DNA of 64,000 bases, taken from positions 87,008 through 151,007 of the forward strand of contig JALNYL010000001.1 of NCBI GenBank assembly GCA_023229865.1. The letters run 5' to 3'. Source of the stretch: Minisyncoccota bacterium. GTDB taxonomy: Bacteria; Patescibacteriota; Minisyncoccia; Phycocordibacterales; UBA1550. The notes beneath the pieces were generated by a model. That model had not been told where the DNA came from. It made no database searches and was given only the letters and a program-made list of their open reading frames with translations. This document shows positions 1 through 38,250 of this stretch, one piece after another (the stretch's first letter is position 1; every line of letters starts with the position of its first letter). The position numbers and the translations under genes are program-made.

Positions 1-2
1 AA

Positions 3-413
3 GACATTCTCCTTCGAGAACAAAAATACGGACTCGGAATACTCTTTAACGACTGGCGCGTCTTTCAAGCGCTGATGCCTGAGCAGAAAAAGTACCGCGA
101 CCTCGACGGCCCTTACTGGTATCAATACCCCCAAGGCGAGTCGATTCCTGACGTACAACTAAGGATGCGGATTTTCGCGCTCGACACACTCGCAAAATAC
201 GCAGGGCGAAACGTTCTCATCATCTCGCACCACAGGACGATCCTCTCTTATGTCGCAAACCAGAAAAATCTGTCTCCTGAACAAGTTCTTGCGCTCGACA
301 AAAAAGAACGCCCAGCGAACTGCGGCGTGACGACTTTAATCGGCGACAACTATTTCGGGGACTGCAAGGGGCTCAAACTTGAGTACTACAACAGATGCTT
401 CTGGAAAGATTGA
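3..413 (+). CDS. Histidine-phosphatase (phosphoglycerate-mutase-like) family protein, 5' end cut by the window edge
   Basis: The reading frame is open from position 3; the listed ORF 75..413 is its in-frame tail. The C-terminal half has an HP-family-like segment (..RNVLIISHHRTILSYV.., GESIPDV). The N-terminal RHG catalytic motif is not in the window. Confidence 0.4.
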   Translation, partial: DILLREQKYGLGILFNDWRVFQALMPEQKKYRDLDGPYWYQYPQGESIPDVQLRMRIFALDTLAKYAGRNVLIISHHRTILSYVANQKNLSPEQVLALDKKERPANCGVTTLIGDNYFGDCKGLKLEYYNRCFWKD

Positions 414-540
414 TGCAAAATTACAGCCCGCGACGGTTACGTCGCGGGCTGATTTTTTACTCTTTTTCTACTTGACAATAATATTGCATCGTGGGAAAAT
501 AGTATCAGAACATTCATTAATCAACTACGCGGAGGTTGCC

Positions 541-714
541 ATGTTTTGCGCATACTGCAAAAAAGAAATCCGTGGCCCATACATTACAGTAATTGTGGAC
601 GCCGCGAAGAAAGATTTCTGCAACGAAGAACACTCATATAAATACTTCAAGGAGCAAGATCGCATCATTCTTGAAGAGTTTGCACAATCTCAGAAAACTC
701 CTGAGCAAAAGTAA
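541..714 (+). CDS. Small zinc-ribbon protein with a TRASH/YHS-like Cys pattern
   Basis: Internal ATG of ORF 379..714. Encodes MFCAYCKKEIRGPYITVIVDAAKKDFCNEEH.., i.e. C-x2-C-x20-C-x3-H. About 58 aa and followed by a hairpin terminator. Confidence 0.35.
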   Translation: MFCAYCKKEIRGPYITVIVDAAKKDFCNEEHSYKYFKEQDRIILEEFAQSQKTPEQK

Positions 715-720
715 GAAAAC

Positions 721-757
721 AAAAAGGCCATCCTCGGATGGCCTTTAATTTTTTTAC
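721..757. terminator. Bidirectional intrinsic terminator between convergent genes
   Basis: aaaaaGGCCATCCtcGGATGGCCtttaattttttt: a GC-rich 8-bp stem flanked by an A-run and a T-run. It lies between the stop of 541..714 (+) and the stop of 761..1552 (-). Confidence 0.6.
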
Positions 758-760
758 TTT

Positions 761-1552
761 TTACGAAATTTTCACCTCGACGTTAATCGGCCGACGAAGA
801 ACTTCCATCATCAGCTTCCGACGGGCGTGATTCACCTTCTGGGCGCGCTTGTTCTTACTGCTTCCGTCCCAGATAGCGTCCGCAAAACCCCATTCGACTG
901 CTTCATCCGCTGAGAACCAAACGTCGATATGCTTGCGGATCAAACTGTCGAGCTTTTTCCGAATCCACTTCGGCGGCTTCGAGCGGTATTTCCCCTGCTC
1001 CTTGAGCCGCGCAACATAGATACGAAACATGAGCTCGCGCGACTTCCGACGTTCAATGTCATTCGTTTGGGCTTCTTGGTCAAGCCCATAGGTCGCATAC
1101 TGTCCATGATGGTACATATATTGTGCCGGAGGGCGAATATAGAACCGATCTGCAGCAAGCGGAATGATTGACGTCATCGAACGCGCCCATTTCGTAGCAA
1201 TCACTGTCGTTGGGTTTGGACAAGTAAGGAGTGCCCCAAACATCTGCAGTCCTGCTTCCATATCACCACCACAACTCGACATTACTACCACGAGCGGACG
1301 TTTCGGGTCGATACTGCTCAGAAGATGTAGGTTCGCTTCGAACCTGTTCGCCATCATGTACTCAACCCCTGGTTCGCCGAGTTCGAGGTCCGAGTGACTC
1401 TCTAGGTGACCAGGATCGCCCCCGACGTAGATGATGAAGTCACTACGATTGACGCGGAAGTTGTGCACGTCCTCGGTGAGTTTGTCCCCCAGGAGGGCCT
1501 CCGTGTGCTTCTTCTGCAACTTACGATCAACCTTATCCTTTTTTGCTGACAT
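761..1552 (-). CDS. ClpP-family (peptidase S14-like) serine peptidase homolog with a lysine/arginine-rich C-terminal extension
   Basis: ClpP-like blocks appear in order: VVVMSSCGGDMEAGLQMFGAL (compare ClpP INSPGGxxxAGxxIYD), a ..ARSMTS.. Ser region, MYHHGQ (compare MIHQP), and WFSADEAVEWGFADAI (compare FLSAxEAxEYGLVDxI). It is far diverged from housekeeping ClpP. Confidence 0.55.
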   Translation of the reverse strand: MSAKKDKVDRKLQKKHTEALLGDKLTEDVHNFRVNRSDFIIYVGGDPGHLESHSDLELGEPGVEYMMANRFEANLHLLSSIDPKRPLVVVMSSCGGDMEAGLQMFGALLTCPNPTTVIATKWARSMTSIIPLAADRFYIRPPAQYMYHHGQYATYGLDQEAQTNDIERRKSRELMFRIYVARLKEQGKYRSKPPKWIRKKLDSLIRKHIDVWFSADEAVEWGFADAIWDGSSKNKRAQKVNHARRKLMMEVLRRPINVEVKIS

Positions 1553-1737
1553 GACTTTCCCCTTTCGAGTGAGAAATGTGTTTTAAAAGAGTACTTCTGT
1601 TCCAGACAAAATCCTACCTTATTGTGGGAGAAAATGGAAGCACAGGAGCTTGCTCTAATTTTCGCAATAAGAAACTATCGCTTCTTGTTGCGAAAATAGG
1701 GGTCAAAGAAAAACACTCCGTTTTTGCAAACTGAGTG

Positions 1738-1941
1738 TTAAGGTTCTTCTGGTGATATATACACCTGTTTGAGTGGTGGGCAGACGATATGAGTGTATCT
1801 GGTCGTACCAGTCGGGACATCATAACTTTTTTGATATGCATCAGTGCGGATATTGATTTCCTGACAACACTTCTCGCAGAGATGATATTCAAAAATATTT
1901 GTCCTGATGCGCAATTTTTTCGGATTCTCTTGATTAGTCAT
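1738..1941 (-). CDS. Small Cys/His protein, paralog 3 of a tandem trio (zinc-ribbon-like, unknown function)
   Basis: Internal start of ORF 1738..2250: MTNQENPKKLRIRTNIFEYHLCEKCCQ..GTTRYTHIVCPP. It carries the same EYHxCxKCxQ ... TT(R)Y(x)H(x)xCP motif pair as the gene at 2251..2418. A GGGGGA sits 5 nt upstream of the ATG, and the start overlaps the stop of the upstream gene by 8 nt. Confidence 0.4.
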   Translation of the reverse strand: MTNQENPKKLRIRTNIFEYHLCEKCCQEINIRTDAYQKSYDVPTGTTRYTHIVCPPLKQVYISPEEP

Positions 1942-2131
1942 TCTGTCCCCCGTAATCAATCTTCGGATAGCCATGGATACTGGCCACGAGCTCGGGCGCT
2001 TCAAAGAGACAACCGAGATGGTAGTACTTCGGGTGACTCTCAACTTCATCAATGATTGCGATCGGCGCATTGGGTGCAATATCTTGAAGACAGAGCCCGC
2101 AAAAATCGGGGTGATAGTCGTATTCAGCCAT
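1934..2131 (-). CDS. Small Cys/His protein, paralog 2 of the tandem trio
   Basis: Strong RBS (ttGGGAGGAGaacatcATG). Encodes MAEYDYHPDFCGLC..KYYHLGCLFE, a related YHPxxCxxC ... YxHxxC pattern. Confidence 0.5.
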   Translation of the reverse strand: MAEYDYHPDFCGLCLQDIAPNAPIAIIDEVESHPKYYHLGCLFEAPELVASIHGYPKIDYGGQND

Positions 2132-2250
2132 GATGTTCTCCTCCCAATATTAAAGTTCAAGGACTCCTTCAATACTACCCCACCGCCAGAAGAGAGTAAA
2201 GGGACAAAAGAGAGAGCGCCACACCCCTCTGGGGTGTGGCGCTTTTTCAA

Positions 2251-2418
2251 TCACTTCTTCTTTTGTGGACACTTTACGTGCTCGTAGGTAGTACGCCCAC
2301 GGAGTTCCTTCTTCACCAGATTGGGGTCCGTAGCAGGAGCCATCTGCCGGCACTTACTACACGGGTGATACTCGGTGTGAAGCGCTGCCCCACCCCTTCC
2401 TACCTGAACGATGCGCAT
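2251..2418 (-). CDS. Small Cys/His protein, paralog 1 of the tandem trio
   Basis: Internal ATG with an excellent RBS (aAAGAGGAGattcaagATG). Encodes MRIVQVGRGGAALHTEYHPCSKCRQ..GRTTYEHVKCPQKKK, whose motif pair aligns closely with the 1738..1941 product. Confidence 0.5.
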   Translation of the reverse strand: MRIVQVGRGGAALHTEYHPCSKCRQMAPATDPNLVKKELRGRTTYEHVKCPQKKK

Positions 2419-2545
2419 CTTGAATCTCCTCTTTGTAAGTTTCAATACTAAAAAATCTCAAGCAGAGCAAGAAAAACTCTAGCGCAACAATACTACTATT
2501 CTCTATACCAGTCAATCCATCGTATTGATTCTTCATATCTAAATC

Positions 2546-2599
2546 ATTTACCTAGGACCGTCCTCGGCAGGCGCCTGCCGAGGACGGTCCTAGGTAAAT
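2546..2599. repeat. 54-bp perfect palindrome (inverted repeat without a spacer) in the divergent intergenic region
   Basis: atttaCCTAGGACCGTCCTCGGCAGGC|GCCTGCCGAGGACGGTCCTAGGtaaat. Every base pairs with its mirror partner around a centre at 2572/2573. It lies between the 2251..2418 (-) start and the 2755..3813 (+) start. Confidence 0.9.
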
Positions 2600-2754
2600 T
2601 TTACTGTTGCTCTTATTATTTTTTGTGCTAAACTTCGAGTAATTAGGTTCGTACTTTTTGTTGCTTGGGGAAAGTTGAGATTTCTTTCGCGAGCAATCTC
2701 CCCTCTCCCCAGTCAATGAGGCTGGATTTGTCCTTTCACAACCAGGAGGTCATT

Positions 2755-3813
2755 ATGACTACCAAGAAAGCAGTCGGAAGCATGACAGAGCAACCCCCTG
2801 CGAGAAAGCAAACCAGCAGAGACAAGGAAATTCAAATCGTGTCTCTCAGGGGTGAGCTTCAATCGCTCAGGCGCAATTACAACGGAGCTCTCCATGAGCT
2901 GCAACAACTTCGCAGGGAGCAAGACGCTTTTCTGAGCATTGCCAATCGTGAAAAAACCACGCATATCATCGAGCCCTACCGTGCCGAAGGAAAATCTGAA
3001 GCAACGGCAATCGTGCTCGCGAGTGACTGGCACGTCGAAGAAGAAGTGAAGAAAGCCAAAACATCCGGCCTGAATCGCTACAACCTCGACATCGCGAAGG
3101 CACGCGCAGATCAGTTCTTCTCGCGCGCGGTCAAAATGATTCAAAAAGAGCAGCAGGACATCCCCATCAGGGAAATGGTTCTGTTCTTAGGCGGAGACTT
3201 CATCACGGGCAACATCCACGAAGAACTCCCCACGAACTGCCTGCTCGAACCCATGGATGCAATCGACTACGCCGAAGAGCTCATCGCAAGTGGCGTGGAA
3301 TTTATCCTCGCCCACACGAAACTCAAGGTAACGGTTGTTTGTTCTGTGGGGAATCACTCGCGCATCACCGAGAAAACATACATATCGGCCGAGCAAGGTC
3401 ACTCGCTCGAAACCTTCATGTATCGCAGTCTCAGGAAGCGCTTCGTCGGCGAAAAACGCATCACGTTTGTCATCGGTGAAGGGTATCACACCTACATCGA
3501 TGTCTACGGTCGCCAACTTCGCTTCCACCACGGGCACGGCATTCGTTACCAGGGTGGCGTCGGCGGTCTCACGATCCCCGTCAACAAAGCGATTGCGCAA
3601 TGGAACAAAGCGGTCCCCGCATTCCTCGACTGCTTTGGTCACTACCACACATCGATGTCGCTCTCGAACTTCGTCTCCAATGGTTCCCTCATTGGTTACA
3701 ATGCGTTTGCCTTGTCCATCAAGGCAGATTTCGAGCGGCCGCAACAATCGATGTTCTTGGTTGATAAGTTGCGTGGCAAAACGGTGTCCATCCCGCTCTT
3801 GTTTGATATCTAA
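2755..3813 (+). CDS. Calcineurin-like metallophosphoesterase with an N-terminal coiled-coil segment
   Basis: Start re-assigned to the ATG with an RBS (ccAGGAGGtcattATG). The MPE motifs occur in order: ASDWH (D-x-H), GGDF (GD), VGNHS (GNH), FHHGHG, GHYH (GHxH). Confidence 0.7.
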   Translation: MTTKKAVGSMTEQPPARKQTSRDKEIQIVSLRGELQSLRRNYNGALHELQQLRREQDAFLSIANREKTTHIIEPYRAEGKSEATAIVLASDWHVEEEVKKAKTSGLNRYNLDIAKARADQFFSRAVKMIQKEQQDIPIREMVLFLGGDFITGNIHEELPTNCLLEPMDAIDYAEELIASGVEFILAHTKLKVTVVCSVGNHSRITEKTYISAEQGHSLETFMYRSLRKRFVGEKRITFVIGEGYHTYIDVYGRQLRFHHGHGIRYQGGVGGLTIPVNKAIAQWNKAVPAFLDCFGHYHTSMSLSNFVSNGSLIGYNAFALSIKADFERPQQSMFLVDKLRGKTVSIPLLFDI

Positions 3814-3886
3814 ACAGAGCGCGTGACCACTCCTGTAGTTCTTTCAAAGCCCCTGATTCTAGGGGCTTTTTATTTTACTGTTTGTA

Positions 3887-3938
3887 TTACCTAGGACCGT
3901 CCTCGGCAGACCCCCGCCGAGGACGGTCCTAGGTAATA
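3887..3938. repeat. Second copy of the same palindromic element, 22-bp arms around an 8-nt centre
   Basis: attaCCTAGGACCGTCCTCGGC agaccccc GCCGAGGACGGTCCTAGGtaat. The arms are identical to those of the 2546..2599 palindrome. It lies about 75 bp downstream of the metallophosphoesterase stop. Confidence 0.85.
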
Positions 3939-3960
3939 CGGCTGGACATTGCGCATGACT

Positions 3961-3990
3961 TGACTTTTTTAGTCAAGTATGCTATCTTTA
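3961..3990 (+). promoter_or_regulatory. Candidate sigma-70-type promoter for the cold-shock gene
   Basis: TTGACT, then 17 nt, then TATCTT, about 100 nt upstream of the csp ATG. A long 5' UTR is typical of csp genes. The -35 lies inside the small inverted repeat cttgacttttttagtcaag. Confidence 0.25.
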
Positions 3991-4091
3991 AGACACAAAA
4001 GTAGGAGGGATTGTAGGAAGAGAACATTTTTCACACGAGACTGTAGCTAATTTTGTATATTATAAAGTTTGTTTAAAGTAAAAAAAGAAAT

Positions 4092-4289
4092 ATGAAAGGA
4101 GTAATCAAGAAGGTAACTGACAAGGGTTTTGGTTTTATCACCGCAGAAGGTATGGAGAAGGATCTCTTCTTCCACGCTAACTCACTCGTAGGCGTATCAT
4201 TTGATGACGTTCGCGAGGGTGATGAAGTAACATTCGAAACTGAGGACTCTCCAAAGGGTATGTCAGCAGTAAACGTAGAGCGCGTATAA
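4092..4289 (+). CDS. Cold-shock protein (CspA family, S1-like cold-shock domain)
   Basis: [36 protein letters not shown]: the RNP1/RNP2 motifs KGFGFI and DLFFH. The product is 65 aa. Confidence 0.9.
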
Positions 4290-4310
4290 ATAACGCAATC
4301 GCGTAAAACA

Positions 4311-4349
4311 AAAATCCCGCCGTCGCAAGACGGCGGGATTTTTGTTTTT
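4311..4349 (+). terminator. Intrinsic terminator after csp
   Basis: aaATCCCGCCGTCgcaaGACGGCGGGATttttgtttttt: a 12-bp GC-rich stem followed by a U-run. Confidence 0.8.
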
Positions 4350-4404
4350 TGCTATCCACAGATATTTACTCCCCTTCACAAAGAAAGCAGTGTATAATAA
4401 GAGT

Positions 4405-7400
4405 AACTATCCTATGTACACTTCAACACACAAAACAAAAATAAAATTATTCGCAATCATTTTCCCTGTTCTCTTCTTTGTTTTGTTAAACGTGCAAACA
4501 ATACACGCACAAGAAGTGGCGACGAGCACAGAAAAAACTTCTGTTCTCTTTCTTGGTAATAAAAATCTTGCTCCCGTAATCTCTCTCAACAGAGAAACTC
4601 CCAATGGGGTAGCGATTGATATCGTTAGAGCAGTTTCTCAATACATCTCTCTTCCTGTGGATATACAAACAGCGGATTGGGCAGAGGCACAAAAGCTCGT
4701 CGCGGAAGGAGGCGCTGATGCGCTTATTCAAATAAACCCCACCGAGGAGAGAAGAAAAATTTATGATTTTTCTGGACCTCTTCTTGAAACCCATATCAGT
4801 GTTTTCACGCGCACAGCACAAGGGGTCCAAAATATTGAGAGTTTGCACAACCTCAGGGTTGGGGTCGAGGCCGGCGGACTCCCCGAGCAACTCCTCAAAG
4901 AACATCCAGGGGTGCTGAATCACTCGGAAATAACTCTCGTCTTTATCGAAAATTTCCTCGATGGATTTAATCTATTAAAAAACGATTCTCTAGATGCTGT
5001 TGTTGTCGATGAGCGTGTGGGTAAATACATTCTTGCAACAAACAACATTCGAGGAATAAAAATATCAGGAGACCCTATTTATTCTTCTTATTCCGCCATT
5101 GCAGTAAAAAAAGGAAATGAATTACTCCTCAATGAAATCAACGAGGGGCTGCAAAAAATAAAAGCCGATGGGACGTATCAAAAAATATTAGACTCTTGGT
5201 CGGCGCAGGATGTTATTTTCCAAACACAAGAAGAAGCAACTCAAGAAATCTATCTCATCACTTCCGTAACATTAGGTGGACTCCTTCTTGTTACTATCAT
5301 TTGGGTAATCGCCATAAAAATACAAATCGGAAAAAGAAGATCTCTAGAAAAGCACGAGGCGGAAATCCAAAAGGAGCTACAAAGAAAAGATGTAAATCTT
5401 CATCAATCAATGGAGACCGCGCGTGATGGTGTCATTGTGATGGGAGCTGATGGTACGGTTACTTTTTGGAACAAAGCAGCTGAACAGATTTTTGGATACA
5501 CAAAAGAAGAAGCTATTGGCAGAGATCTTCATCGTCTCATTGCTTCTCCTGAGGACCAAGCTGTTTTCAAGGAGCGTTTCCATAAGTTCCTCGCCACAGG
5601 AGATGGTCCTATTGTAAATGTCGTACGCGAACTCACTGCAATCCGCAAAAACGGTGAGCAGTTCCCTGTTGAGCTTTCTGTCTCCGCTTCAAAGATTGAC
5701 AGTGGGTGGATCGCGACGGGTATCGTGCGCGATATCTCTGAGCGCAAGAAAGCTGAAAACGAACTTAAGGCTACTACAAAAAACCTCAATGATGCCCAAC
5801 GAGTAGCACGTATCGGAAGCTGGGAGCTTGATATCAAGACTAATAAACTTATTTGGTCCAATGAGATTTTTGAGATTTTTGAGATTGACCAAACAAAATT
5901 TGGAGCAACCTACGAGGCGTTTCTTGATGCTGTTCACCCCGAAGACAAAGATGCGGTGAGTCAGGCATACACAAACTCTCTCAAGACTAAGGAGTCCTAC
6001 TCTATCGACCATCGCCTCCTCATGAAAGACGGGCGCATTAAATATGTGCACGAAGAGTGCACGACACATTACGCAAGCGACGGGACCCCGCTTCGTTCTG
6101 TTGGCACCGTCCAAGACATCACCGAGCGCAAAAAAGCAGAACTTGATATTTCAAAAAAGAGTCGCGCTCTTCGCATGTTGAGCGATACCAACAATGCACT
6201 TATCCACGCCGACAACGAAAAAGAACTCCTTGATCAAGTTTGTGAAATCATGACAAAGGAGGGTGGATATCGTCTTGTGTGGATTGGAGGAATTGAACAC
6301 GACCAAAATATGACTATTCGCCCCATGGCACAAGTCGGATTTGAGGATGGTTACCTCGAATCACTCAACTGGAGCTGGGGAGACACCGATCGCGGGCAAG
6401 GCCCCGAAGGTGTTGCCGCGCGCACCAACGCTCCCATTATTGTTCATAATATTGCAACAGACCCAAAAACATTTCTTTGGCACGAAGATGCAAAAGAACG
6501 AGGATATCAATCTCTTGGGGTTTTCCCTATTGCTGACGACAAGGGCGCTTTTGCTGTCATGGGAATCTACGCAGGAGAACCAACTGCGTTTAGTGAAGAC
6601 GAGATTGAGATTCTTAAAGAAATGACCGATGACCTAGCTTTTGGCATTACCACTCTTCACGAACGAAAAGAACATGAACTAGCTGAAGAAAAATTCACAG
6701 CAACATTCCACGCGTCCCCCGATGCGATGATCATTGTAAGACTTTCAGACAATAAAATCCTCGATGTAAATGAAGCATTTTCGCAAATTCTAGGGTACGC
6801 GCACGATGATGTCGTAGGAGGTTCCACCAATGATTTCCCTGTCTGGGTAGATTCCGCAGATCGCAGCACTTTCGAAAAAACCATTGCCGAAAAGGGAACG
6901 ATTTCTGGTTTTGAAACTCCCATGAGAAAAAAAGATGGTGGCGTCATCGAGTCCCTCGGCTCAGCAAGAACCATTGATATCAATGGAGAAAAGTGTATCT
7001 TGTCGACAATTCACGACATCACGGAACGCAATCGCACAGAAAAACAGCGTCTCGCAAATCTTAAGTTTATCGAAAATACCAATAAGATAAACCAAGTAAT
7101 TCAAAAATCTACCGACTTTGAACAAACGATGAGCTCGGTGCTTGATGCAATGCTCTCTATTTTTGGCAGCGACCGTGCATGGCTTATCACTCCATGCGAT
7201 CCATGGTCCCTCCATTATCGCGTGCCAATGGAAAGATCCAGACCAGAATACCCTGGAGCATCTGTCTCAGGGATGGATGTCCCTGTCGACCCTGATACAA
7301 CGATTCTTTTTCAAAAGACACGTGCGACCGATGGCCCTGTTGTCTTTAACTCAGAAACCGACCCTCCCCTTCCCCCGGAAATCACCAAACATTTCCAGGT

Positions 7401-9588
7401 TCAATCACAAATTGTTATGGACATCTATCCGAGAGTTGGAGAATCTTGGATGATTGGTATGCGCCAGTGTTCTTATGAGCGCGTATGGACAGAAGAAGAA
7501 AAGAGACTTTTCCAAGAAATTGGGCACAGAGTTTCGGACGCACTCACTAGTCTTCTTATTTCTCGCGACTTGAAAAAAAGTGAAGAAAAATACCGCAGAA
7601 TCATTGAGACCTCAAACGAGGGTATCGCAATCCTCGACAAAGACCGCAAACTTACTTTTGTAAATACGCGATTTGCAAAGCTCCTTGGATACGAAGAGAG
7701 GGAGATGCTCGGAGAAAAATTTGATGCTTTTCTTGCCCCTTCTGACCTCGCCGATCACGAACTTCAAATGAAGGCACGCCGTGAAGGAAAGTCGAGTTTT
7801 TACGATCGACAATTTGTTCATAAAAACGGAAATATCATATGGTGTAGTGTATCAGCCACTCCTCTTTTTGATGACAAAGGAGAATTTAATGGCTCTTTCG
7901 GAATGTTTACCGACATCACCGAACGCAAGAAGGCTGAGGAAGGCCTCCAGGAACAAGAACAATATTCGCAATCCCTTCTTCGTTTCTCGCGCAAGGTTGA
8001 GCAGTCACAAATGTATGGCGAAGTACTAAAAGCGGCGCAGGAAGAAATTAAAACCGTCCTTGGATATAACAATGTGTGGGCATACCTTGTAGATGCCGAT
8101 AAAAAATATGCACATTCTATTGCAGCAGTGGGCTCTACGTCTGAAATGGTTATGTCGGAAGAGTTTTCAGCAACCCTTACTATCACAGGAGACCCCATGC
8201 TTGAAGCAATCGCCTCCGCAAAGGAGATCGTGATAGTCGCCGATGCAATGACAGACCCCAACGTGAACAGAGAGATTGTGGAGAAAATGAAGAACAGAAC
8301 AATCGTGAATGTGCCGATTATTCTCTTTGATCGCAATCTCGGGAGTGTTGGGATGGGGACCTTTGGCGACGAGGGGGTACGCGTCCCAACCCCTGACGAG
8401 GAAGATTTCTTGATTGCGATGGCAAGCCATATGGCTGTCGGTTTTGATCGTATTCGTCTCCTCGCAGAGAGAAAGAAGACTGAGGAAATACTACGCAGAA
8501 ATGAGGAGCAACTTGTAGAGGCGCAGCGCGTCGGGCACTTTGGAAGCTTCGAGTGGGACGCAAGAACTGATACTGCTATTTGGTCAAAGGAATTCTATCA
8601 TATCTACGGAGTTGATCCGTCACTCCCCGCTCCTCCTCTCCAAGACTATCTAAAACTATACACCCCAGAGAGCGCAGCTATTATGACGAAGGCCGTAGAA
8701 ACGATAGTAAAAACAGGAGAGGCATACAGCCTGGACCTAGAACAAGTGCGACCGGATGGCGCCAGAAGGTGGATACATCTTCAAGGAGAAGCGAAGTATG
8801 ACGAACAACATAATTTTATTGGGGTACGTGGGACGGCACAGGATATTACAAAAGCAAAAGAGGTAGAGCGAATGCGTGTCGACTTCCTGTCGCTTGCTTC
8901 ACACCAGCTCCGCACACCGCTTTCAGGCACCAAGTGGCTCATTGAAACACTTGAAAAAGAGCTTCCTGGACCACTTACGACAGGACAAAGAGAGTACCTC
9001 GAAGAAATCTACAAGATCAACGAGAGAATGACGCGCTTGGTTTCTGATATGCTCGTCGCGCTCCGCGTCGACAGTAGTGAATCGGTACTTGTCAAAAAAC
9101 CAATCTCTATACCACAGTTGTTTGATGACCTTATGCTGAGTGTAAAAGCGGCAGCGGCAAGCAGAAAGATCACCATCAGGAGTAGGACTTCGGAACATTC
9201 TCTCCCTCAAGTAGAGTCTGATATGAATTTCTTGAGCATTATTCTAGGGGCGCTCATGGCCAACGCCATCAACTACTCCCCAGAGGGCGCGGAAATTGTG
9301 TTTGACGTAAACGAAGAAGAAAATGGTGCAGTGCTCAGTGTGCAGGATTTTGGGATCGGAATTCCTCAAGAAGAACAAGCTCATATATTTGAGCGCTTCT
9401 TCCGTGCTGTTAACGCAAAAATGATACGCCCAGAAGGTACGGGGCTTGGATTATATATCGCCAAAATGATTGCTGAAAAATTGGGCGGCACAGTGACATT
9501 TACCTCAGAACCAGGGAAAGGTTCCACCTTCTCTCTTCATATCCCCAACCATAACGCCACGGTCAAAGCAGAGGCTCCCACACAATAA
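4405..9588 (+). CDS. Giant multi-sensor histidine kinase: signal peptide, periplasmic solute-binding (SBP family 3-like) domain, TM, multiple PAS and GAF domains, HisKA, HATPase_c
   Basis: Start moved to MYTSTHKTKIKLFAIIFPVLFF (signal-peptide-like). A periplasmic amino-acid-binding-like region is followed by a TM helix (IYLITSVTLGGLLLVTIIWVIAI). Repeated PAS/PAC blocks carry DITERKKAE linkers. H-box LASHQLRTPLSGTKWLIETL; G-box GTGLGLYIAKMIAEKLGG..GKGSTF. Confidence 0.85.
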   Translation, partial: NYPMYTSTHKTKIKLFAIIFPVLFFVLLNVQTIHAQEVATSTEKTSVLFLGNKNLAPVISLNRETPNGVAIDIVRAVSQYISLPVDIQTADWAEAQKLVAEGGADALIQINPTEERRKIYDFSGPLLETHISVFTRTAQGVQNIESLHNLRVGVEAGGLPEQLLKEHPGVLNHSEITLVFIENFLDGFNLLKNDSLDAVVVDERVGKYILATNNIRGIKISGDPIYSSYSAIAVKKGNELLLNEINEGLQKIKADGTYQKILDSWSAQDVIFQTQEEATQEIYLITSVTLGGLLLVTIIWVIAIKIQIGKRRSLEKHEAEIQKELQRKDVNLHQSMETARDGVIVMGADGTVTFWNKAAEQIFGYTKEEAIGRDLHRLIASPEDQAVFKERFHKFLATGDGPIVNVVRELTAIRKNGEQFPVELSVSASKIDSGWIATGIVRDISERKKAENELKATTKNLNDAQRVARIGSWELDIKTNKLIWSNEIFEIFEIDQTKFGATYEAFLDAVHPEDKDAVSQAYTNSLKTKESYSIDHRLLMKDGRIKYVHEECTTHYASDGTPLRSVGTVQDITERKKAELDISKKSRALRMLSDTNNALIHADNEKELLDQVCEIMTKEGGYRLVWIGGIEHDQNMTIRPMAQVGFEDGYLESLNWSWGDTDRGQGPEGVAARTNAPIIVHNIATDPKTFLWHEDAKERGYQSLGVFPIADDKGAFAVMGIYAGEPTAFSEDEIEILKEMTDDLAFGITTLHERKEHELAEEKFTATFHASPDAMIIVRLSDNKILDVNEAFSQILGYAHDDVVGGSTNDFPVWVDSADRSTFEKTIAEKGTISGFETPMRKKDGGVIESLGSARTIDINGEKCILSTIHDITERNRTEKQRLANLKFIENTNKINQVIQKSTDFEQTMSSVLDAMLSIFGSDRAWLITPCDPWSLHYRVPMERSRPEYPGASVSGMDVPVDPDTTILFQKTRATDGPVVFNSETDPPLPPEITKHFQVQSQIVMDIYPRVGESWMIGMRQCSYERVWTEEEKRLFQEIGHRVSDALTSLLISRDLKKSEEKYRRIIETSNEGIAILDKDRKLTFVNTRFAKLLGYEEREMLGEKFDAFLAPSDLADHELQMKARREGKSSFYDRQFVHKNGNIIWCSVSATPLFDDKGEFNGSFGMFTDITERKKAEEGLQEQEQYSQSLLRFSRKVEQSQMYGEVLKAAQEEIKTVLGYNNVWAYLVDADKKYAHSIAAVGSTSEMVMSEEFSATLTITGDPMLEAIASAKEIVIVADAMTDPNVNREIVEKMKNRTIVNVPIILFDRNLGSVGMGTFGDEGVRVPTPDEEDFLIAMASHMAVGFDRIRLLAERKKTEEILRRNEEQLVEAQRVGHFGSFEWDARTDTAIWSKEFYHIYGVDPSLPAPPLQDYLKLYTPESAAIMTKAVETIVKTGEAYSLDLEQVRPDGARRWIHLQGEAKYDEQHNFIGVRGTAQDITKAKEVERMRVDFLSLASHQLRTPLSGTKWLIETLEKELPGPLTTGQREYLEEIYKINERMTRLVSDMLVALRVDSSESVLVKKPISIPQLFDDLMLSVKAAAASRKITIRSRTSEHSLPQVESDMNFLSIILGALMANAINYSPEGAEIVFDVNEEENGAVLSVQDFGIGIPQEEQAHIFERFFRAVNAKMIRPEGTGLGLYIAKMIAEKLGGTVTFTSEPGKGSTFSLHIPNHNATVKAEAPTQ

Positions 9589-11946: not shown

Positions 11947-14900
11947 ATGTCTGTGATTTTCTCAAAGCCTGTAAAAGTATTTTTTATCATAACACTCACA
12001 TTGTTTGCAGTTTTCTTTAGCCAGAATATTGCTCTCGCAGCCGTCGCTCACGACGTTGCGAGCGAGAGTCACGCAGGCACCACAGGCTCAACCAATCAAT
12101 CTTCTTTTTCTTGGACCCACACACCCTCAGGGACCCCGCGTGGCGTACTTGTATTCGTTCATACAGTTAACGACATTAAGAGAGTGACGGGCGTAACCTA
12201 CGGCGGAGTAACAATGACAGAAATAGCAGGCGGCGCAGCAGTAGATGCTAATGGCGAACAAGGCCGCATTGATACATTCTTTCTTGGTACAAGTATCCCC
12301 ACAGGAGCACAGACAATCGTTGTCAGTAGGACAAATAACGGCGATGAGATGTACGCTTCTGCTTCTACACAAACCGCACTTGCCAATACTGAAATCTACA
12401 CCGCAGGAATTGTCCTCCTCCAAGAAAGTGGATCATACACAGTTCAGTCTGTCACGGACGGGAGCACGGGGTCAAATAGTCTTCGCTATGCTTCAGGATA
12501 CTATGGAGGGAATAACGCACTTTCCGCAGGGACAGGAAGCACTGTGCTCAACAGTATCGACTACGGGAGCCAGACAAGCACAACAGCGCGAGAAACAACT
12601 GCTGGGCAAGGAGCACGTAACGTTGGTTTCACTTCAACATCAGATGACCGAGCAGGTGTTCATCTCGCCGTCCGTGAAATCCCCGCTGTCCCCACCGTCA
12701 CCACCCCTACCGCGACTTCCATCACAACATCAGGGGCAACACTCGGCGCCAATGTCACATCGCTTGGCATCCCCGCATCAATCTCTGCACGTGGTACATG
12801 TTGGGGTACATCACCAAGTCCTGTGACTAATTGCTCCGCTGAGGGCGGAACAACAACAGGAGTCTTCACTCACGCACGTACAGGAATGAACTCGAATACA
12901 CTCTACTACTACCGCGGGTATGCGACAAATAGTACAGGGACGGGTTACTCAGCTGACGGGACGTTCACAACACTTGCTATTACGGGATCAGTATCTGCTT
13001 CCCCTTCGACCTGCACCATTTCATCTGGCGCAAGTACATGTACCGTGCCGTTCACATGGAGCATCACCAATGCATCTTCTCCAAATCTCTATAATGCAAC
13101 CACGGCAACAACATACTCGACATCAGCATCAGGGACAGGAGTTTCGTTTGCTATTACCAATGGATCAAACACGGTGCAGGCACGCAACAGCAGTACAATA
13201 CTTGCGTCTACTTCGGTGACGGGTAGTTGTACTCTAGGGACTTCATGGAACGGGAGTATATGTGCAGCAACCCCCGCTGTCCCCACCGTCACCACTCCTA
13301 CCGCAACCTCCATTACTACATCGGGGGCAACACTTGGCGCAAACGTAACTTCCCTCGGTGTCCCTGCGTCAATCTCTGCACGTGGTACATGTTGGGGGAC
13401 ATCACCAAGTCCTACTACGAATTGTGTTGCGGAAGGTGGTACCACGACGGGAGTCTTTACCCACGCACGTACAGGAATGAGCCCTAGTACGCTGTATTAC
13501 TATCGTGGCTACGCAACAAATAGTACAGGAACTGGTTACTCGACTGACGGGACGTTTACCACTGCAGCTCCCCCTGCAAGCGGGACTGTTTCTGCTTCGC
13601 CAACTTCCTGTACTATCTCGTCAGGATCAAGCACCTGCAATATTCCGTTTACTTGGAGTATTTCAAATGCCACTTCTCCCAACCTTTACAATGCGACAAC
13701 CGCAAATCAATACTCAACATCAGCATCAGGAACAAACGTCTCTTTCCCTATAACCAACGGATCAAACACGGTACAAGCGCGTGACAGCAGTACGGTACTT
13801 GCATCTACTTCGGTGACGGGTAGCTGCACTCTAGGGACGTCATGGAACGGAAGTGTGTGTTCTCCAAACCCAGTCACAACGATCGCCGACGGAAGCAATC
13901 CTTCAAATACAACTCTCGCCCCTAGTGGAGCAGTGACAGATCTTGATGTCTTTACCCTCACCACAAGCACGGGGAGCGACACCGTAACCGCGCTCACGGT
14001 GACATTGGTCCCTACCGGTGCATTCAATAACATTGCTCAAGTCGATCTCACTGACAACAGCAATCTCGCACGCTGTACTGCAGTGACAAACCCAGGAAGC
14101 AACACAATTTCTTTTTCATCATGTAACTCAAACGGTGGTGTCACCGTCACAACAAGTGCGACAACGTACAAGGTACGCATCACACCAAAAACTCACGCCA
14201 ACATGCCCGCCCCCGCATCGGGAGCAAGCTATGCGACGACCGGCACCGTGACTTCATTTACAAGCACCAACACGCAAGCAGGGACAGACTCTGGTAGTGC
14301 GACGATAACCATCGACAACCTCTCCCCTGCTAATGTCACGAGCGCAAGCGGGAGCGCAGGAGACGCGCAAGTAACCACAAACTGGACAAATCCCGTTGAT
14401 GCGGATTTTCATAGTACAATCGTCCTCCGCCGCGCAGGGACGGCCGTATCTGATACCCCTACAGAAGGAGCAACGTACACAAATGGAAGCACGATTGGCG
14501 CATCAACCGTCGCCTGCGTAGTTTCTTCTCCGACGGCAACCTGTGTTGATGGTAGTCTTACCAATGGTACTGCCTATCATTACAAGCTTTTTAGTAAAGA
14601 TTCCAACGGCAACTATGCTTCAAGCGGAGCAGTACCAACAGGGTCACCATTTACTCCATCAATCACAACGTTTACCATCACCGCAAGCGCGGGGGCAAAT
14701 GGAACCGTAACACCATCAGGAGCAACCGTTGTCGCGCAAGGGAGCTCGCAGCTTTACAATATCACCCCCAACTCGGGATACAATATCGCAACGCTCGTTG
14801 TTGATGGATCTTCTATTGCAACATCGACCACGTACACGTTTAACAACGTTCAACAAAACCACACCATCAGTGCGACATTCGCTCTCATCCCTGTTATTAC

Positions 14901-16350
14901 CTACACCATCACTTCCTCCGCAGGGGCAAATGGTGCGATCTCTCCTTCTGGTGCGACCGTGGTAAACCAAGGAGCAAACCAGTCATACGACCTTACCCCC
15001 GACTCGGGATACAACGTCGACACCCTTACGGTAGACGGTAGCCCTGCGGCAACCTCGACGCCATACACCTTTACCAACGTACAAGCCGATCACACTATCA
15101 GTGTCACCTTTATTGCTATCGTCGTTCCCCCGGGATCATTCATCATCAACGCTACCGCAGGCGCAGGCGGAACGATCAACCCCCTCGGCTCAACACTCGT
15201 GACGCAGGGGACAAATCAGTTATACACTATCACTCCTGATTCAGGATACAATATCGCGACACTTACCGTTGACTCTGTCTCAGTAGCGACATCAACAAGC
15301 TACACCTTTACTAACGTACAAACGACCCACACTATCGACGCTACGTTCGTCGCCATTCCTCCCCCACCAGGATCATTCAATATCACCGCAAGCACAGGAG
15401 CAAACGGATCGATAACCCCGTCAGGTATCACCGCAGTAACGCAAGGTGCTTCACAAGCCTACACGATTACTCCCGATTCGGGATACGATATCGCAACGCT
15501 CGTGATTGACGGCTCGTCGGTCGCGACATCAACAAGCTACACCTTTACCAACGTACAGGCAGCACATACCATCAGCGCGACATTCGTAGCGATTTCAGGG
15601 ACATCGTCGACTCCGGAGTCAGGAGCTTCTCGCCCAACGACTATTACTTTTTTTGGGAAAGCCTTCGCGGGAGGCAAAGTCTCCATCGCAAACAAACTCT
15701 TGAGCACACAAAGCCTCATAGGACAAGAAGTAACCCCGGGCACTGATGGCTCATTCCGCATTTCATTTGTGGGGATCCTTCAGGGACTTCAAAGTTTTGG
15801 ACTCATTGCAAAAGATAAAAATGGCCACACGTCGCAGACAAAGTTTTTCTTTTTTGACACAACATCAGAAGGATTTGTTGAAAAAGAATTATTGCTCCCC
15901 CCAACGATTGATATCCTTTCTGGGCAAGTAACTCGTGGAAAGAGTGCGACCGTAGTCGGTTTTGCGTCTCCCAACAATAGCGTTGCCCTCTATATAGATG
16001 ATATACTAATACAAGAGGTGCTCGCGGAAAAAGATGGCTCCTATACATTTGGAGCCATCACCGGAGCTCTTAGTTTTGGGCAACACAACGTCAAGGCAAA
16101 ACAAATAAACAAAACTTCAAAAACAGAAAGTGATTTTTCAACAACGCGAACATTCATCGTTTCGCAACTCACCATCACAAAAGCAGACTTCTCGGGGGAC
16201 GGCAAGATAGATATCAAAGACTGGAGCATCTTCCTCTCTCGTTGGATATCAAAAAACCCACTCGAGAGGGAGAGTATCGACATTACGGGGGACGGAAAAG
16301 TCGATATATCAGATTTCAGTATTTTCATTAAAACCATAAGAAAAAAATAA
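11947..16350 (+). CDS. Giant secreted surface protein (1,467 aa): signal peptide, tandem FN3-like/Ig-like modules, four ~83-aa InlB-B-repeat-like beta repeats, C-terminal dockerin (type I-like)
   Basis: Signal peptide MSVIFSKPVKVFFIITLTLFAVFFSQNIALA. A ~200-aa module is duplicated in tandem (PAVPTVTTPTATSITTSGATLGANVTSLG..YYYRGYATNSTGTGYS). Four repeats begin ITASAGANGTVTPSGATVV..YNITP.SGYNIATL.VDG. The C-terminus DFSGDGKIDIKDWSIFLSRWI..DITGDGKVDISDFSIFIKTI forms two calcium-loop dockerin segments. Confidence 0.8.
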   Translation: MSVIFSKPVKVFFIITLTLFAVFFSQNIALAAVAHDVASESHAGTTGSTNQSSFSWTHTPSGTPRGVLVFVHTVNDIKRVTGVTYGGVTMTEIAGGAAVDANGEQGRIDTFFLGTSIPTGAQTIVVSRTNNGDEMYASASTQTALANTEIYTAGIVLLQESGSYTVQSVTDGSTGSNSLRYASGYYGGNNALSAGTGSTVLNSIDYGSQTSTTARETTAGQGARNVGFTSTSDDRAGVHLAVREIPAVPTVTTPTATSITTSGATLGANVTSLGIPASISARGTCWGTSPSPVTNCSAEGGTTTGVFTHARTGMNSNTLYYYRGYATNSTGTGYSADGTFTTLAITGSVSASPSTCTISSGASTCTVPFTWSITNASSPNLYNATTATTYSTSASGTGVSFAITNGSNTVQARNSSTILASTSVTGSCTLGTSWNGSICAATPAVPTVTTPTATSITTSGATLGANVTSLGVPASISARGTCWGTSPSPTTNCVAEGGTTTGVFTHARTGMSPSTLYYYRGYATNSTGTGYSTDGTFTTAAPPASGTVSASPTSCTISSGSSTCNIPFTWSISNATSPNLYNATTANQYSTSASGTNVSFPITNGSNTVQARDSSTVLASTSVTGSCTLGTSWNGSVCSPNPVTTIADGSNPSNTTLAPSGAVTDLDVFTLTTSTGSDTVTALTVTLVPTGAFNNIAQVDLTDNSNLARCTAVTNPGSNTISFSSCNSNGGVTVTTSATTYKVRITPKTHANMPAPASGASYATTGTVTSFTSTNTQAGTDSGSATITIDNLSPANVTSASGSAGDAQVTTNWTNPVDADFHSTIVLRRAGTAVSDTPTEGATYTNGSTIGASTVACVVSSPTATCVDGSLTNGTAYHYKLFSKDSNGNYASSGAVPTGSPFTPSITTFTITASAGANGTVTPSGATVVAQGSSQLYNITPNSGYNIATLVVDGSSIATSTTYTFNNVQQNHTISATFALIPVITYTITSSAGANGAISPSGATVVNQGANQSYDLTPDSGYNVDTLTVDGSPAATSTPYTFTNVQADHTISVTFIAIVVPPGSFIINATAGAGGTINPLGSTLVTQGTNQLYTITPDSGYNIATLTVDSVSVATSTSYTFTNVQTTHTIDATFVAIPPPPGSFNITASTGANGSITPSGITAVTQGASQAYTITPDSGYDIATLVIDGSSVATSTSYTFTNVQAAHTISATFVAISGTSSTPESGASRPTTITFFGKAFAGGKVSIANKLLSTQSLIGQEVTPGTDGSFRISFVGILQGLQSFGLIAKDKNGHTSQTKFFFFDTTSEGFVEKELLLPPTIDILSGQVTRGKSATVVGFASPNNSVALYIDDILIQEVLAEKDGSYTFGAITGALSFGQHNVKAKQINKTSKTESDFSTTRTFIVSQLTITKADFSGDGKIDIKDWSIFLSRWISKNPLERESIDITGDGKVDISDFSIFIKTIRKK

Positions 16351-27233: not shown

Positions 27234-27767
27234 TTATCTTAGCGTTGCCGTCGTGCGAAGCGTGTCCGAGTACACCCAGTCAGTGCTTGAGGAATTGTAA
27301 CGCATCGTCATCACGACCTGCACCGCGGTGGTTGTCGCGTTCAATACCCCGTTATAATTCTCAAAGCGCGTAAATGTCGGCGCGTCCACGGTGACAAAAT
27401 TACCCGTGACGGCTTCAGGGGTGCCCGCGACTCCGACCTTGCGACGCAAAACTCCATTCAACATATCATAGTAAACAGTATCGGCTCCGACCGTGAGCGT
27501 GAGTGCGCTCCCTGGGGCACCAAGGGCTGGTGCGGAAACCGCAGAAGCATTTTTTACATCACGGCTAATAACATCAGCTGCGAAGCGTATTGCACTATTG
27601 ACCTCACTGCGTGCCTCAGACTGTCCGCGACCCTTAGAGAGCGCAATAAACGCATCCGAAACAATCACCATAAGTCCCGAAAGAATGGCGATGTAAATCA
27701 AAAGCTCCAAGAGACTAACTCCAGAATTTTGAATGTTGAATTTTGAATGTTGAATTCGATTTTCCAT
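27234..27767 (-). CDS. Prepilin-type minor pilin/pseudopilin
   Basis: Leader MENRIQHSKFNIQNSG|VSLLELLIYIAILSGL (Gly at -1, Glu at +5, hydrophobic helix). The leader region contains a 14-nt direct repeat, (attttgaatgttga)x2. Confidence 0.7.
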   Translation of the reverse strand: MENRIQHSKFNIQNSGVSLLELLIYIAILSGLMVIVSDAFIALSKGRGQSEARSEVNSAIRFAADVISRDVKNASAVSAPALGAPGSALTLTVGADTVYYDMLNGVLRRKVGVAGTPEAVTGNFVTVDAPTFTRFENYNGVLNATTTAVQVVMTMRYNSSSTDWVYSDTLRTTATLR

Positions 27768-27789
27768 ATTCTAACTTCTATATTCTACC

Positions 27790-28650
27790 CTATGGCGCCC
27801 AGTTCACTACCACATCTTGTACGGTCGGCGTGTATGTTCCCGATATTATACAATCACTCGAGCAAATACGAATTTTATAACGAAAATATTGATTATTATT
27901 AAATGGCGTAGCGCAAGAAACTGGTACAAGGAGTTCAATAGGAGTACCAGGAGCAACAGGCTCAAACCAATCCCCCTCTCCGCCAACACAAGATGGTCCA
28001 ACAAATGTCCACGGACCACCTACGTTCCCCGATGATGCAAATTGAAATTTTACATGACCCTCATTTGTTCCCGGTCCACCAAGTGCCCCCTTCCAAAGCA
28101 CTGAGTTATACCCAGCGCCATCAGCAACCCCTGTCGAATCAAACACAGCGGAGATAAGATCACCAAACGGAGGCAGACCTCCACACGCCGGTGGCGCGTA
28201 ACGATGCGATTCTGTCATTTTGATTCCAAGTCCATACACCGTCACTCCCGACGGATTGAAATTAAGCGAGTAAGAATAGGAACCAGCAGATGCAGGATTG
28301 ATTTTCCCTGAATCATCCTTGTATTCGATTTCAAAAGGCGTTGGCGTTGTTCCTGCGTTGGGGAGTGTGTATGTTTTTGATGTAGCAGCGTCGCCGTCGA
28401 TCATAAAGGTAATCGTGCCATTCCCCGTGTAAACCCCCGATGCGGTGAAATGGAGTGATTTGAGAGGATTAATAACTCCTGCGAGGTTGTCACCAACATA
28501 GAGCGCAAATGGGTATGATTGGTTTGAAGAAATGGCGATGTCGGAGTCGGCAATGATTGTCTCTGTAGTTTTCATCTGGTCAGCAGCAAAAACCATGTAT
28601 GCCATAGAGGTAAGGCCGATCATAAAAAATATTACGCGAAGAATTTTCAT
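27790..28650 (-). CDS. Secreted hypothetical protein with a Cys-rich C-terminus, in the minor-pilin operon
   Basis: Start moved to MKILRVIFFMIGLTSMAYMVFAA (signal peptide). The listed longer ORF overlaps the upstream gene. No recognisable domain. Confidence 0.45.
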   Translation of the reverse strand: MKILRVIFFMIGLTSMAYMVFAADQMKTTETIIADSDIAISSNQSYPFALYVGDNLAGVINPLKSLHFTASGVYTGNGTITFMIDGDAATSKTYTLPNAGTTPTPFEIEYKDDSGKINPASAGSYSYSLNFNPSGVTVYGLGIKMTESHRYAPPACGGLPPFGDLISAVFDSTGVADGAGYNSVLWKGALGGPGTNEGHVKFQFASSGNVGGPWTFVGPSCVGGEGDWFEPVAPGTPIELLVPVSCATPFNNNQYFRYKIRICSSDCIISGTYTPTVQDVVVNWAP

Positions 28651-28670
28651 TAAAAATATAAAGAGGGACG

Positions 28671-29330: not shown

Positions 29331-29334
29331 ATTG

Positions 29335-34021: not shown

Positions 34022-34023
34022 AA

Positions 34024-34650: not shown

Positions 34651-34655
34651 ATTGC

Positions 34656-35174: not shown

Positions 35175-35179
35175 ATATT

Positions 35180-36403: not shown

Positions 36404-36411
36404 AAATAATA

Positions 36412-38127: not shown

Positions 38128-38250
38128 GAGGGGTAGAATTTTGAATATGGAATATGGAATTTAGAAAAAATACCCACAGAACATACCCATTGATATACTT
38201 ATTAGTATATCATATCTCATTTCATATGTGTCACTACACTGTGGATAAAG

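Follow-up and report, generated by a model that had tools for sequence, protein, structure and literature searches.

A conserved Patescibacteria locus combining a phage-type metallophosphoesterase, Cys/His mini-proteins and a ClpP-like protease, with REPIN-type palindromes

The pre-early metallophosphatase A1 of phage T5 is both necessary and sufficient for degradation of the host DNA, and its expression alone is toxic (bioRxiv 10.64898/2026.04.02.716235). REPINs, which are doublets of repetitive extragenic palindromic (REP) sequences mobilised by REP-associated tyrosine transposases (RAYTs), have a published definition (PMC3337134, PMC3116915), and a literature search returned no report of REPINs or RAYTs for the Patescibacteria or candidate phyla radiation (CPR) and nothing on ClpP-like proteins of the CPR. 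Both systems bear on a locus in a 64,000-nucleotide stretch of DNA (hereafter the window) from a Minisyncoccota bacterium (GenBank assembly GCA_023229865.1, contig JALNYL010000001.1, positions 87,008 to 151,007), in which genes for a ClpP-like protease, three Cys/His mini-proteins (m1-m3) and a divergent metallophosphoesterase (MPE) lie together. A sequence-only reading had singled out this locus at 761-3940 as matching no canonical housekeeping operon; it is a real, conserved, compact non-housekeeping cluster in an ultra-small CPR/Patescibacteria bacterium, and all of the features described in that reading are present where it had placed them, whereas the interpretation given there is borne out in part. 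Each component belongs to a known kind or is a variant of one, and what is new is their combination, the mini-protein family and the replacement of genes within their slots in situ. The descriptive part of the account (identities, motifs, synteny, slot replacement, phage homologues, selection and the REPIN identity of two palindromes) is offered with high confidence. The explanation as a whole, of a conserved Paceibacteria (CPR) chromosomal locus of three phage-type accessory gene kinds whose products include proposed partners, is considered somewhat probable. L-numbers below denote contigs carrying homologues or repeats, and P-numbers denote proteins.

The MPE gene (2755-3813, plus strand) encodes a protein of 352 residues (MPE352) in which a long N-terminal helix precedes the MPE domain. 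Its start is an ATG at 2755 with an AGGAGG ribosome-binding site (RBS), not a TTG at 2665. All five metal-binding motifs (DxH, GD, GNH(D/E), H and GHxH) are kept, and the corresponding residues D91/H93, G147-D148, G199-N200-H201, H258/H259 and G295-H296-x-H298 are invariant among 31 homologues; together with an AlphaFold2 (AF2) model placing a long helix at residues 19-64 (predicted local distance difference test score, pLDDT, 83; predicted template-modelling score, pTM, 0.76), this bears out the divergent phosphoesterase read from the sequence. A Pfam scan gave no family at E<=1, PF00149 included (only one listed homologue carries that domain), and an NCBIfam scan gave nothing. The protein matches the phage family PHROG_284 at E 4.1e-42 (residues 24-345 on profile positions 60-391 of 398), a family whose title, 'exonuclease', is an annotation by name only; a sequence search of the PDB with the MPE profile gave nothing, and no solved or assayed PHROG_284 member was found. 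Foldseek matched the model to the exonuclease subunit PolD DP1 (4e-9), to SbcD, Mre11, LpxH and 5'-nucleotidases, and to phage MPEs in BFVD (1e-20); of the solved structures, PolD DP1, SbcD and Mre11 are the nearest. Homologues number 4016, and tblastn recovered sequences of 32-38% identity from Phocaeicola, Bacteroides, cyanophage and Rheinheimera phages, among them gp28 of S-CBS1, a 'DNA repair exonuclease' in a recombination module. The ratio of non-synonymous to synonymous substitution rates (dN/dS) of the gene is 0.04.

Upstream of the MPE gene lies a promoter and leader of about 150 nt (2606-2754, plus strand) with two hairpins, the first at about 2672-2712 and the second, terminator-like and followed by a T-run, at 2709-2725. 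This region is 83-90% identical in L004, L005, L131, L132 and L039, whether the open reading frame (ORF) downstream is MPE352 or A1-like. A consensus fold from RNAalifold has an energy of -24 kcal/mol with three compensatory pairs from only four sequences, and an Rfam scan of positions 1-5000 gave sub-threshold hairpin matches (miRNA and leader models) and no riboswitch or known leader. Viral loci were searched for the window leader as a possible explanation of cassette exchange and none was found. The terminator of the gene (3846-3869, plus strand) is kept in L005 and L131 behind the A1-like ORF. The genomes with A1-type genes also retain the start context of MPE352, ATGACTACC (window 2755-2763), as a short upstream ORF immediately before the RBS of the A1-like gene, encoding MTTECIKAPAIRF* in L005 (~4690-4735) and 19 residues in L132 (~270-340); this ORF may encode a leader peptide or be the scar left by an exchange of cassettes.

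The mini-genes are all on the minus strand: m1 (67 aa, 1738-1941) has the core (Y/F)H-x-CxxC...Y-x-H-x2-CPPLK, m2 (65 aa, 1934-2131) has the core CxxC...YYHxxC followed by a probable helix, and m3 (55 aa, 2251-2418) is an m1-type paralogue in a separate transcription unit. Each has a GGAGG-type RBS and each was also predicted by an independent gene caller, so that the three short genes of the sequence-only reading stand. Taken at the level of sequence, the three are true paralogues: no paralogue or orthologue departs from C22, C25, Y49, H51 and C54 (m1 numbering), and the ligand pattern C22, C25, H51 and C54 is invariant in nine family members and 25 domain copies. The motif pair that had been proposed therefore holds in its CxxC...YxHxxC core but not in the first His of 'YH', which is not conserved in m2 orthologues. 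The stop codon of m2 and the start of m1 overlap (ATGACTAA), which makes translational coupling of the two likely; this overlap and the natural m2-m1 fusion proteins (P0130, P0133, P0136 and P0137) together speak for m2 and m1 acting as a unit. Orthologues of m1 occur in L005 (65% identity), L004, L039, L131 and L132, and those of m2 in L004 and L131 are 76-78% identical; m3 has an orthologue in L039 (78%), where m2 is missing, and is absent from L004 and L005. Values of dN/dS are 0.15 for m1 and 0.08-0.11 for m2. The AF2 model of m1 has a core of four short strands (pLDDT 85-88) and is zinc-ribbon-like. No Pfam, PHROG, NCBIfam or PADLOC family was matched, and the best Foldseek matches, ribosomal zinc-ribbon proteins, have E>=1.1. 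The family is tiny, with nine matches in 5.8e9 proteins and 17 in 1.8e9 representatives, and wherever a contig is long enough for neighbours to be seen, the mini-proteins adjoin one of two nuclease types.

The ClpP-like gene (761-1552, minus strand) lies 185 bp beyond m1 (gap 1553-1737, earlier estimated at ~190 bp) and encodes a predicted ClpP-fold serine protease of 263 aa. The assignment to the ClpP family is upheld by the Pfam model PF00574 CLP_protease (61.6 bits, cut-off 20.2, E 1.2e-16), and the basic C-terminal tail noted before is present and conserved (...KNKRAQKVNHARRKLMMEVLRRPINVEVKIS), as is an N-terminal extension of ~60 aa among homologues. The predicted triad of S125 (nt 1178-1180), H148 (1109-1111) and D210 (923-925) is in register with the Ser, His and Asp of solved ClpP structures, of which the profile matches ~100 chains; S125 and H148 do not vary among 28 homologues, in which D210 is at least 90% conserved. 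The score against TIGR00493 (clpP) is 21.1 bits for a cut-off of 308.6, the remaining ClpP models are also far below their cut-offs, and the top NCBIfam match is the ClpP-related head maturation protease NF045542 (55.7 bits, cut-off 120). The protein also matches PHROG_94 at E 2e-20, PHROG having no curated cut-offs. By these profile scores the gene is not a canonical clpP. In keeping with this, no AAA+, ClpX or trigger-factor gene adjoins it in the window, L004, L005, L007, L131 or L132, and no clpX or tig stands next to it in the neighbourhoods of any annotated relative. Homologues (211, of ~260 aa and 50-65% identity) come mostly from Patescibacteria, one of them, P0001 from a Candidatus Pacebacteria metagenome-assembled genome, being 100% identical; dN/dS against L004 is 0.07. 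Portal, scaffold and capsid genes are found beside the gene neither in the window nor in relatives, and a prophage head-protease reading, already called unsupported on the sequence, fails because capsid, portal and terminase genes are lacking.

Four separate transcription units are predicted in the locus. For m3 there is a promoter-like site at 2515-2487 and, directly 3' of the gene, a terminator-like hairpin with a 13-bp stem and T-run (2243-2215, minus strand). In relatives a strong terminator after m1 is followed by a conserved promoter-like region ahead of the protease gene, which in the window is the 5' region at 1553-1641 (minus strand). At the far side of the protease gene a bidirectional terminator-like hairpin (723-746), kept in L004 and L005, separates it from a conserved flanking gene (541-714, plus strand) for a zf-FCS/TRASH-like protein of 57 aa with the pattern CxxC...FC-x3-H. 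The Pfam zf-FCS match of this protein is weak (E 0.013), the gene is syntenic in L004, L005, L131 and L132 at 53-67% identity, and it is a possible extra member of the locus. Two small CxxC proteins encoded between the m2-like and m1-like genes of phage L042 resemble it at the level of motifs only, and homology between them was not established.

The locus is conserved across about eight sister genomes in the order His_Phos_1, zf-FCS, ClpP-like, m1, (m2), (m3), divergent MPE, cold-shock protein (CSD) and PAS kinase, with the full layout in L004, L005/L008, L039, L131 and L132 and a partial one in L040 and L041. The complement of mini-genes varies: m3, m2 and m1 in the window, m2 and m1 in L004, L005, L131 and L132, m3 and m1 in L039, and an m2-like gene with an m2-m1 fusion in L040 and L041. 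The nuclease slot holds a PHROG_284-type MPE in the window and L004 only, the L004 orthologue being 92% identical at the amino acid level and at the same site, and a T5 A1-like protein in L005, L039, L040, L041, L131 and L132. These A1-like proteins match PHROG_1745 at 1e-129 to 7e-143 and have ~30% identity to T5-like A1 over 92% of the length; the window MPE has no PHROG_1745 match and BLASTP finds no similarity between it and the L005 A1-like protein. Similarly, the protease slot in L131 (3162-3932) and L132 (1074-1772) holds another ClpP-like subfamily, 27% identical to that of the window, in which the N-terminus is Pro/Lys-rich and the basic tail is missing. The ~85-nt upstream region (1553-1641) is 75-78% identical between the window and L004, L005 and, despite its different ORF, L131, and despite the divergent protease m2 is 76% and CSD 100% identical between L131/L132 and the window. 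All genes of the locus are under strong purifying selection (dN/dS 0.04-0.15, dS>1). Since the same promoters, leaders and terminators surround differing ORFs, the locus behaves as a hot-spot at which phage-derived variants replace each other with function retained. The gene directly downstream of the cold-shock gene (4342-9588, plus strand) encodes a 1748-aa sensor histidine kinase with SBP_bac_3 and many PAS and GAF domains, which is conserved in L004 and much shorter (589 aa) in L005. On contig L011 an A1-like gene lies 6 kb upstream of a ClpP-like gene.

For each of the three gene types close homologues occur in phages, a point that the sequence-only reading had missed. The MPE family is represented in phages by 189 isolate records and 98 IMG/VR loci. 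Its nearest viral member, 66% identical, is in L042, a contig that also encodes SSB, HNH, lysin and the large terminase, and there the MPE gene is directly followed by an m2-like gene, two small CxxC protein genes and an m1-like gene. Because of this order, the nuclease and mini-proteins look like a phage-derived functional pair. The window-type ClpP-like family occurs at 55-58% identity in the phage contigs L143 (5959-6732), L140 (5834-6580), L134 (5962-6768) and L141 (5929-6735), lying between resolvase and TerS/TerL in L134 and beside PhoH and DnaB in L141. L143 encodes a T4-like capsid as well as a separate phrog_207 head protease, and its ClpP-like gene lies apart from the structural genes; in phages the ClpP-like family is therefore an accessory protease and not the head protease. 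The window-type ClpP-like family is not found in any cultured phage of the INPHARED collection, and scans of viral contigs with single-sequence patterns of the window ClpP-like and the L131-type ClpP-like proteins came back empty.

In the explanation preferred here, MPE would most likely be a Mn2+/Mg2+-dependent DNA (exo)nuclease, an activity that we infer from its motifs and its modelled PolD-DP1/SbcD/Mre11-like fold, and would be expressed from the conserved, structured leader. The mini-proteins would be zinc-dependent partners of this nuclease that act in its targeting, regulation or inhibition, m2 and m1 probably being made by coupled translation and m3 from a transcript of its own, all divergent from the nuclease gene. 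The predicted Ser-His-Asp protease would be produced from its own promoter, as a member of a family common to Patescibacteria chromosomes and phages, and the REPINs would have no part in the mechanism. Confidence differs between the parts of this explanation. The partnership of nuclease and mini-proteins is an even call; that the pair degrades DNA of foreign or imported origin, for phage exclusion or nucleotide salvage, is suggested tentatively; and a functional tie of the protease to the nuclease/mini-protein pair is doubtful.

Several observations weigh against this explanation. Neither MPE nor the mini-proteins are assigned to a functional family by PADLOC, Pfam or NCBIfam, Foldseek of the mini-protein model gave no significant match, and zinc binding by the mini-proteins is suggested by the ligand pattern alone. 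As MPE352 and the A1-like proteins have no pairwise similarity, the same function in the same slot can only be inferred. On chromosomes, nuclease, mini-proteins and protease are found together in a single syntenic lineage only, and these cases are therefore not independent of each other, which makes phage L042 the single independent (non-syntenic) context that joins nuclease and mini-proteins. Genes of the MPE352 family are also found alone, without mini-proteins, in the Patescibacteria chromosomes L128 and L129, and the window-type ClpP-like gene stands by itself, with unrelated neighbours, at 10 other loci of Patescibacteria.

This last observation bears on the alternative that the genes are mere neighbours, in which the ClpP-like protein is an unrelated cellular protease present throughout the lineage, cooperation is confined to the nuclease and mini-proteins (or absent altogether), and the island is an effect of synteny. 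Outside the syntenic lineage the window-type ClpP-like gene, whose family has 211 homologues at 50-65% identity, does stand among housekeeping genes with no relation to the locus, both in Kaiserbacteria and in further Patescibacteria; it has a promoter and terminator separate from those of the other genes, and no ClpP-like gene is present in the 13 kb examined of phage L042. Against this alternative, the gene has been swapped in situ for a 27%-identical subfamily behind the same upstream region, a turnover like that of the nuclease slot, and its family is itself associated with phages. The alternative is regarded as unlikely, although it retains more weight than any of the others.

A defence or toxin role of the locus, of which the sequence-only reading was also reminded, is possible. 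In its most explicit version, as a toxin or abortive-infection module, MPE would be the toxin and the mini-proteins labile zinc-dependent antitoxins, which the ClpP-like protease would degrade upon a trigger and thereby release the nuclease. The toxicity of A1-type nucleases, which suffice to destroy the chromosome, agrees with such a module, as do the joint presence of the three components in ~6-7 syntenic genomes (the window, L004, L005/L008, L039, L131 and L132), the replacement by variants in every slot that is typical of conflict loci, and the long, structured, terminator-containing leader of the nuclease gene, which suggests tight control. However, toxin and putative antitoxins would be divergent and not co-transcribed, homologues of MPE352 exist as singletons, and the protease has its own promoter, is solitary in most genomes and phages, and has no adjoining AAA+ partner. 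PADLOC-DB v2 gave no match for the protease, m1-m3, the zf-FCS protein, the A1-like protein or the L007 neighbour, and a match at chance level only for MPE (E 0.015). Taken together, the module is rather improbable. Somewhat less probable again is a domesticated phage 'host-takeover' kit of a kind not described before, in which a DNA-degrading MPE nuclease, interchangeably of the PHROG_284 or T5-A1 type, would be controlled by a new family of zinc-ribbon partners and a dedicated ClpP-like protease; if true, it would mean that an ultra-small, nucleotide-auxotrophic CPR bacterium uses a new three-component anti-phage system or turns foreign or host DNA into nucleotides.

The phage homologues of all gene types, and the slightly raised GC content of the two large genes (0.51-0.55 against ~0.45), might also be taken as signs of a decaying prophage remnant without present function. 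This is very improbable, as the ORFs are intact in ~8 genomes with dN/dS of 0.04-0.15 at saturated dS, promoters, leaders and terminators are conserved, and no integrase, att site, structural or lysis gene is found at the locus. A tRNA scan found no tRNA and therefore no tRNA-linked integration site.

The MPE gene is flanked by two intergenic palindromes, which had been taken as boundary elements of the island. The first (2546-2599) is a perfect palindrome of 27+27 nt formed by two inverted REP units, and the second (3884-3939) is an inverted REP doublet of 24+8+24 nt; their 50-nt cores are 94% identical. A 17-nt core is found in the four arms against 0.08 expected by chance, and the REP unit core is CCTAGGACCGTCCTCGG. 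As single-stranded DNA the palindromes fold at -30 to -32 kcal/mol (z of about -10 to -12); the 25-nt REP unit folds as ((((((.((((...)))).)))))), and the singlet TTTACCTAGGACCGTCCTCGGTAAA forms a small imperfect hairpin. Neither site is occupied in L004 or L005, and L039 lacks the copy at site 1. When metagenome contigs were scanned for the 17-nt core, REP singlets or doublets turned up in eight other contigs (L022, L027, L029/L036, L030, L031, L032, L033 and L037), with doublets in L030 and L033; several of those besides L030 are low in GC. L030 is syntenic with the pilC-pilB region of the window and encodes a 229-aa IS200-like Y1 transposase between repeats, with a doublet upstream and a singlet downstream. 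This protein passes the Pfam Y1_Tnp cut-off (33.6, cut-off 23), contains NHFHLLL as its HUH motif and YIHLNP as its Tyr motif, and has as its top NCBIfam match REP_Tyr_transpos ('REP-associated tyrosine transposase'), at 36.7 under the cut-off of 80. The palindromes match the published definition of REPINs and RAYTs, and this match, together with the empty orthologous sites, identifies them by sequence and distribution as REPINs that are recent selfish insertions, not island boundaries. The boundary claim is accordingly given up, since the repeats are inserted only in this genome and L004 has the same MPE without them.

In L030 the RAYT-like gene and its REPs (4937-5626) lie between pilB and a membrane-protein gene, and the window has the same order at 38128-38250 without the insertion. 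Further RAYT-like (IS200-like) genes, 35-37% identical to that of L030, were seen in the two Kaiserbacteria contigs L011 (12136-12909) and L013 (14156-14818), a few kb from the ClpP-like gene. Most single 17-mer matches in the high-GC contigs L020, L021, L025, L026, L028, L034, L035 and L038 appear to be chance or coding hits and were left out of account, and a scan of viral contigs for the palindrome core was empty. An integron attC reading was rejected, the palindromes being perfect, having neither extrahelical bases nor a GTTRRRY core, and being absent from orthologous sites.

That both palindrome copies in the 64 kb bracket exactly the promoter, leader, MPE gene and terminator invites the reading that they are functional ends of a mobile MPE cassette, as IS200/IS605-like cargo or as recombination sites; hairpin ends are what Y1 transposases act upon, and the same repeat brackets the RAYT of L030. 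There is very little chance of this, given that the orthologous MPE of L004 (92% aa) occupies the same site with neither palindrome and with nucleotide identity there like that of the flanks, that REP singlets and doublets occur in unrelated intergenic places of other contigs, and that the 64-kb window contains no RAYT.

Finally, the several small Cys-containing paralogues beside a peptidase had suggested a cassette for a ribosomally synthesised and post-translationally modified peptide, with the mini-proteins as precursors and the ClpP-like protein as leader peptidase, a suggestion with next to no chance of being right: the flanks hold a histidine phosphatase, the zf-FCS protein, CSD and a sensor kinase with no modifying enzyme or transporter, the folded CxxC...HxxC core is conserved (dN/dS 0.08-0.15 along it) without a leader/core pattern, two-domain mini-protein fusions exist, homologues lie beside MPE in the early/replication region of a phage, and mini-proteins and protease are transcribed as separate units.

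Elsewhere in the window, a perfect long palindrome of unrelated sequence (27+4+27 nt) occupies 52631-52688, in the divergent intergenic region between ORFs at 52023-52625 (minus) and 52699-53457 (plus). A 15-nt periodic repeat in seven overlapping copies (54639-54779), inside an ORF at 53546-54916 (minus), probably encodes a basic Ala/Pro/Lys-rich low-complexity stretch. Internal repeats of ~230 and 590 nt are present in a 1467-aa ORF (11947-16350). Within 11947-16350 and 27678-40533 a 47-nt motif recurs at the ends of several small ORFs next to pilB/pilC-like genes, as would fit a type IV pilus cluster with multiple pilin-like N-termini.

As Patescibacteria genomes are tiny and have few recognised defence or DNA-processing systems, a conserved phage-type cluster under purifying selection is likely to matter to its host. 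The locus offers a tractable case of ORF-precise replacement by distant homologues behind unchanged promoters in two adjacent slots, a new family of very small zinc-ribbon-like proteins tied to phage MPE nucleases in both chromosome and phage, a ClpP-like family common to CPR bacteria and T4-like phages that is not a head protease, and evidence for a REPIN/RAYT system in CPR genomes. No paradigm is changed by these leads.

Set against the described systems, each component shows both likeness and difference. With T5 A1 (PHROG_1745) the link runs through the sister genomes, whose A1-like proteins occupy the same slot with the same leader and terminator; T5 A1 and the window MPE are both phage-type MPE enzymes, but the window protein is not A1-like and the analogy is positional only. 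Its nearer kin is the PHROG_284 phage family (cyanophage S-CBS1 gp28 and hypothetical proteins of Phocaeicola phages), with which it shares a full-length match to the profile hidden Markov model, the same motifs and the same predicted fold, and from which it differs in being chromosomal in a CPR bacterium, in having a conserved host leader and in being paired with the mini-proteins. The latter resemble small zinc-ribbon and treble-clef domains (the N-terminal zinc-binding domain, or ZBD, of ClpX, ribosomal zinc-ribbon proteins and zf-FCS/TRASH) in their CxxC knuckle, in an HxxC knuckle 22-26 residues further on and in a predicted all-beta core within 55-67 aa. However, they match none of these families in sequence, reach Foldseek E values of 1 or more, and have CCHC ligands with a possible fifth His; association with a nuclease is not a known property of the ClpX ZBD, ribosomal zinc-ribbon or zf-FCS/TRASH families. 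The protease has the CLP_protease domain of ClpP (MEROPS S14) with the triad in register, and its top profile matches are ClpP-related head proteases such as NF045542. It departs from both groups in scores far under the curated cut-offs, in the ~60-aa N-terminal addition and in the basic tail, and its locus has neither a clpX or tig neighbour nor capsid genes. The palindromes, for their part, agree with REPIN/RAYT systems in a short imperfect-hairpin unit whose inverted doublet forms a long hairpin, in extragenic positions beside terminators, in presence or absence at orthologous sites and in a repeat on both sides of an IS200-like Y1 gene (L030). They differ in their Patescibacteria host, in having two copies in 64 kb, and in a RAYT that is carried by the relative L030 and not by the window.

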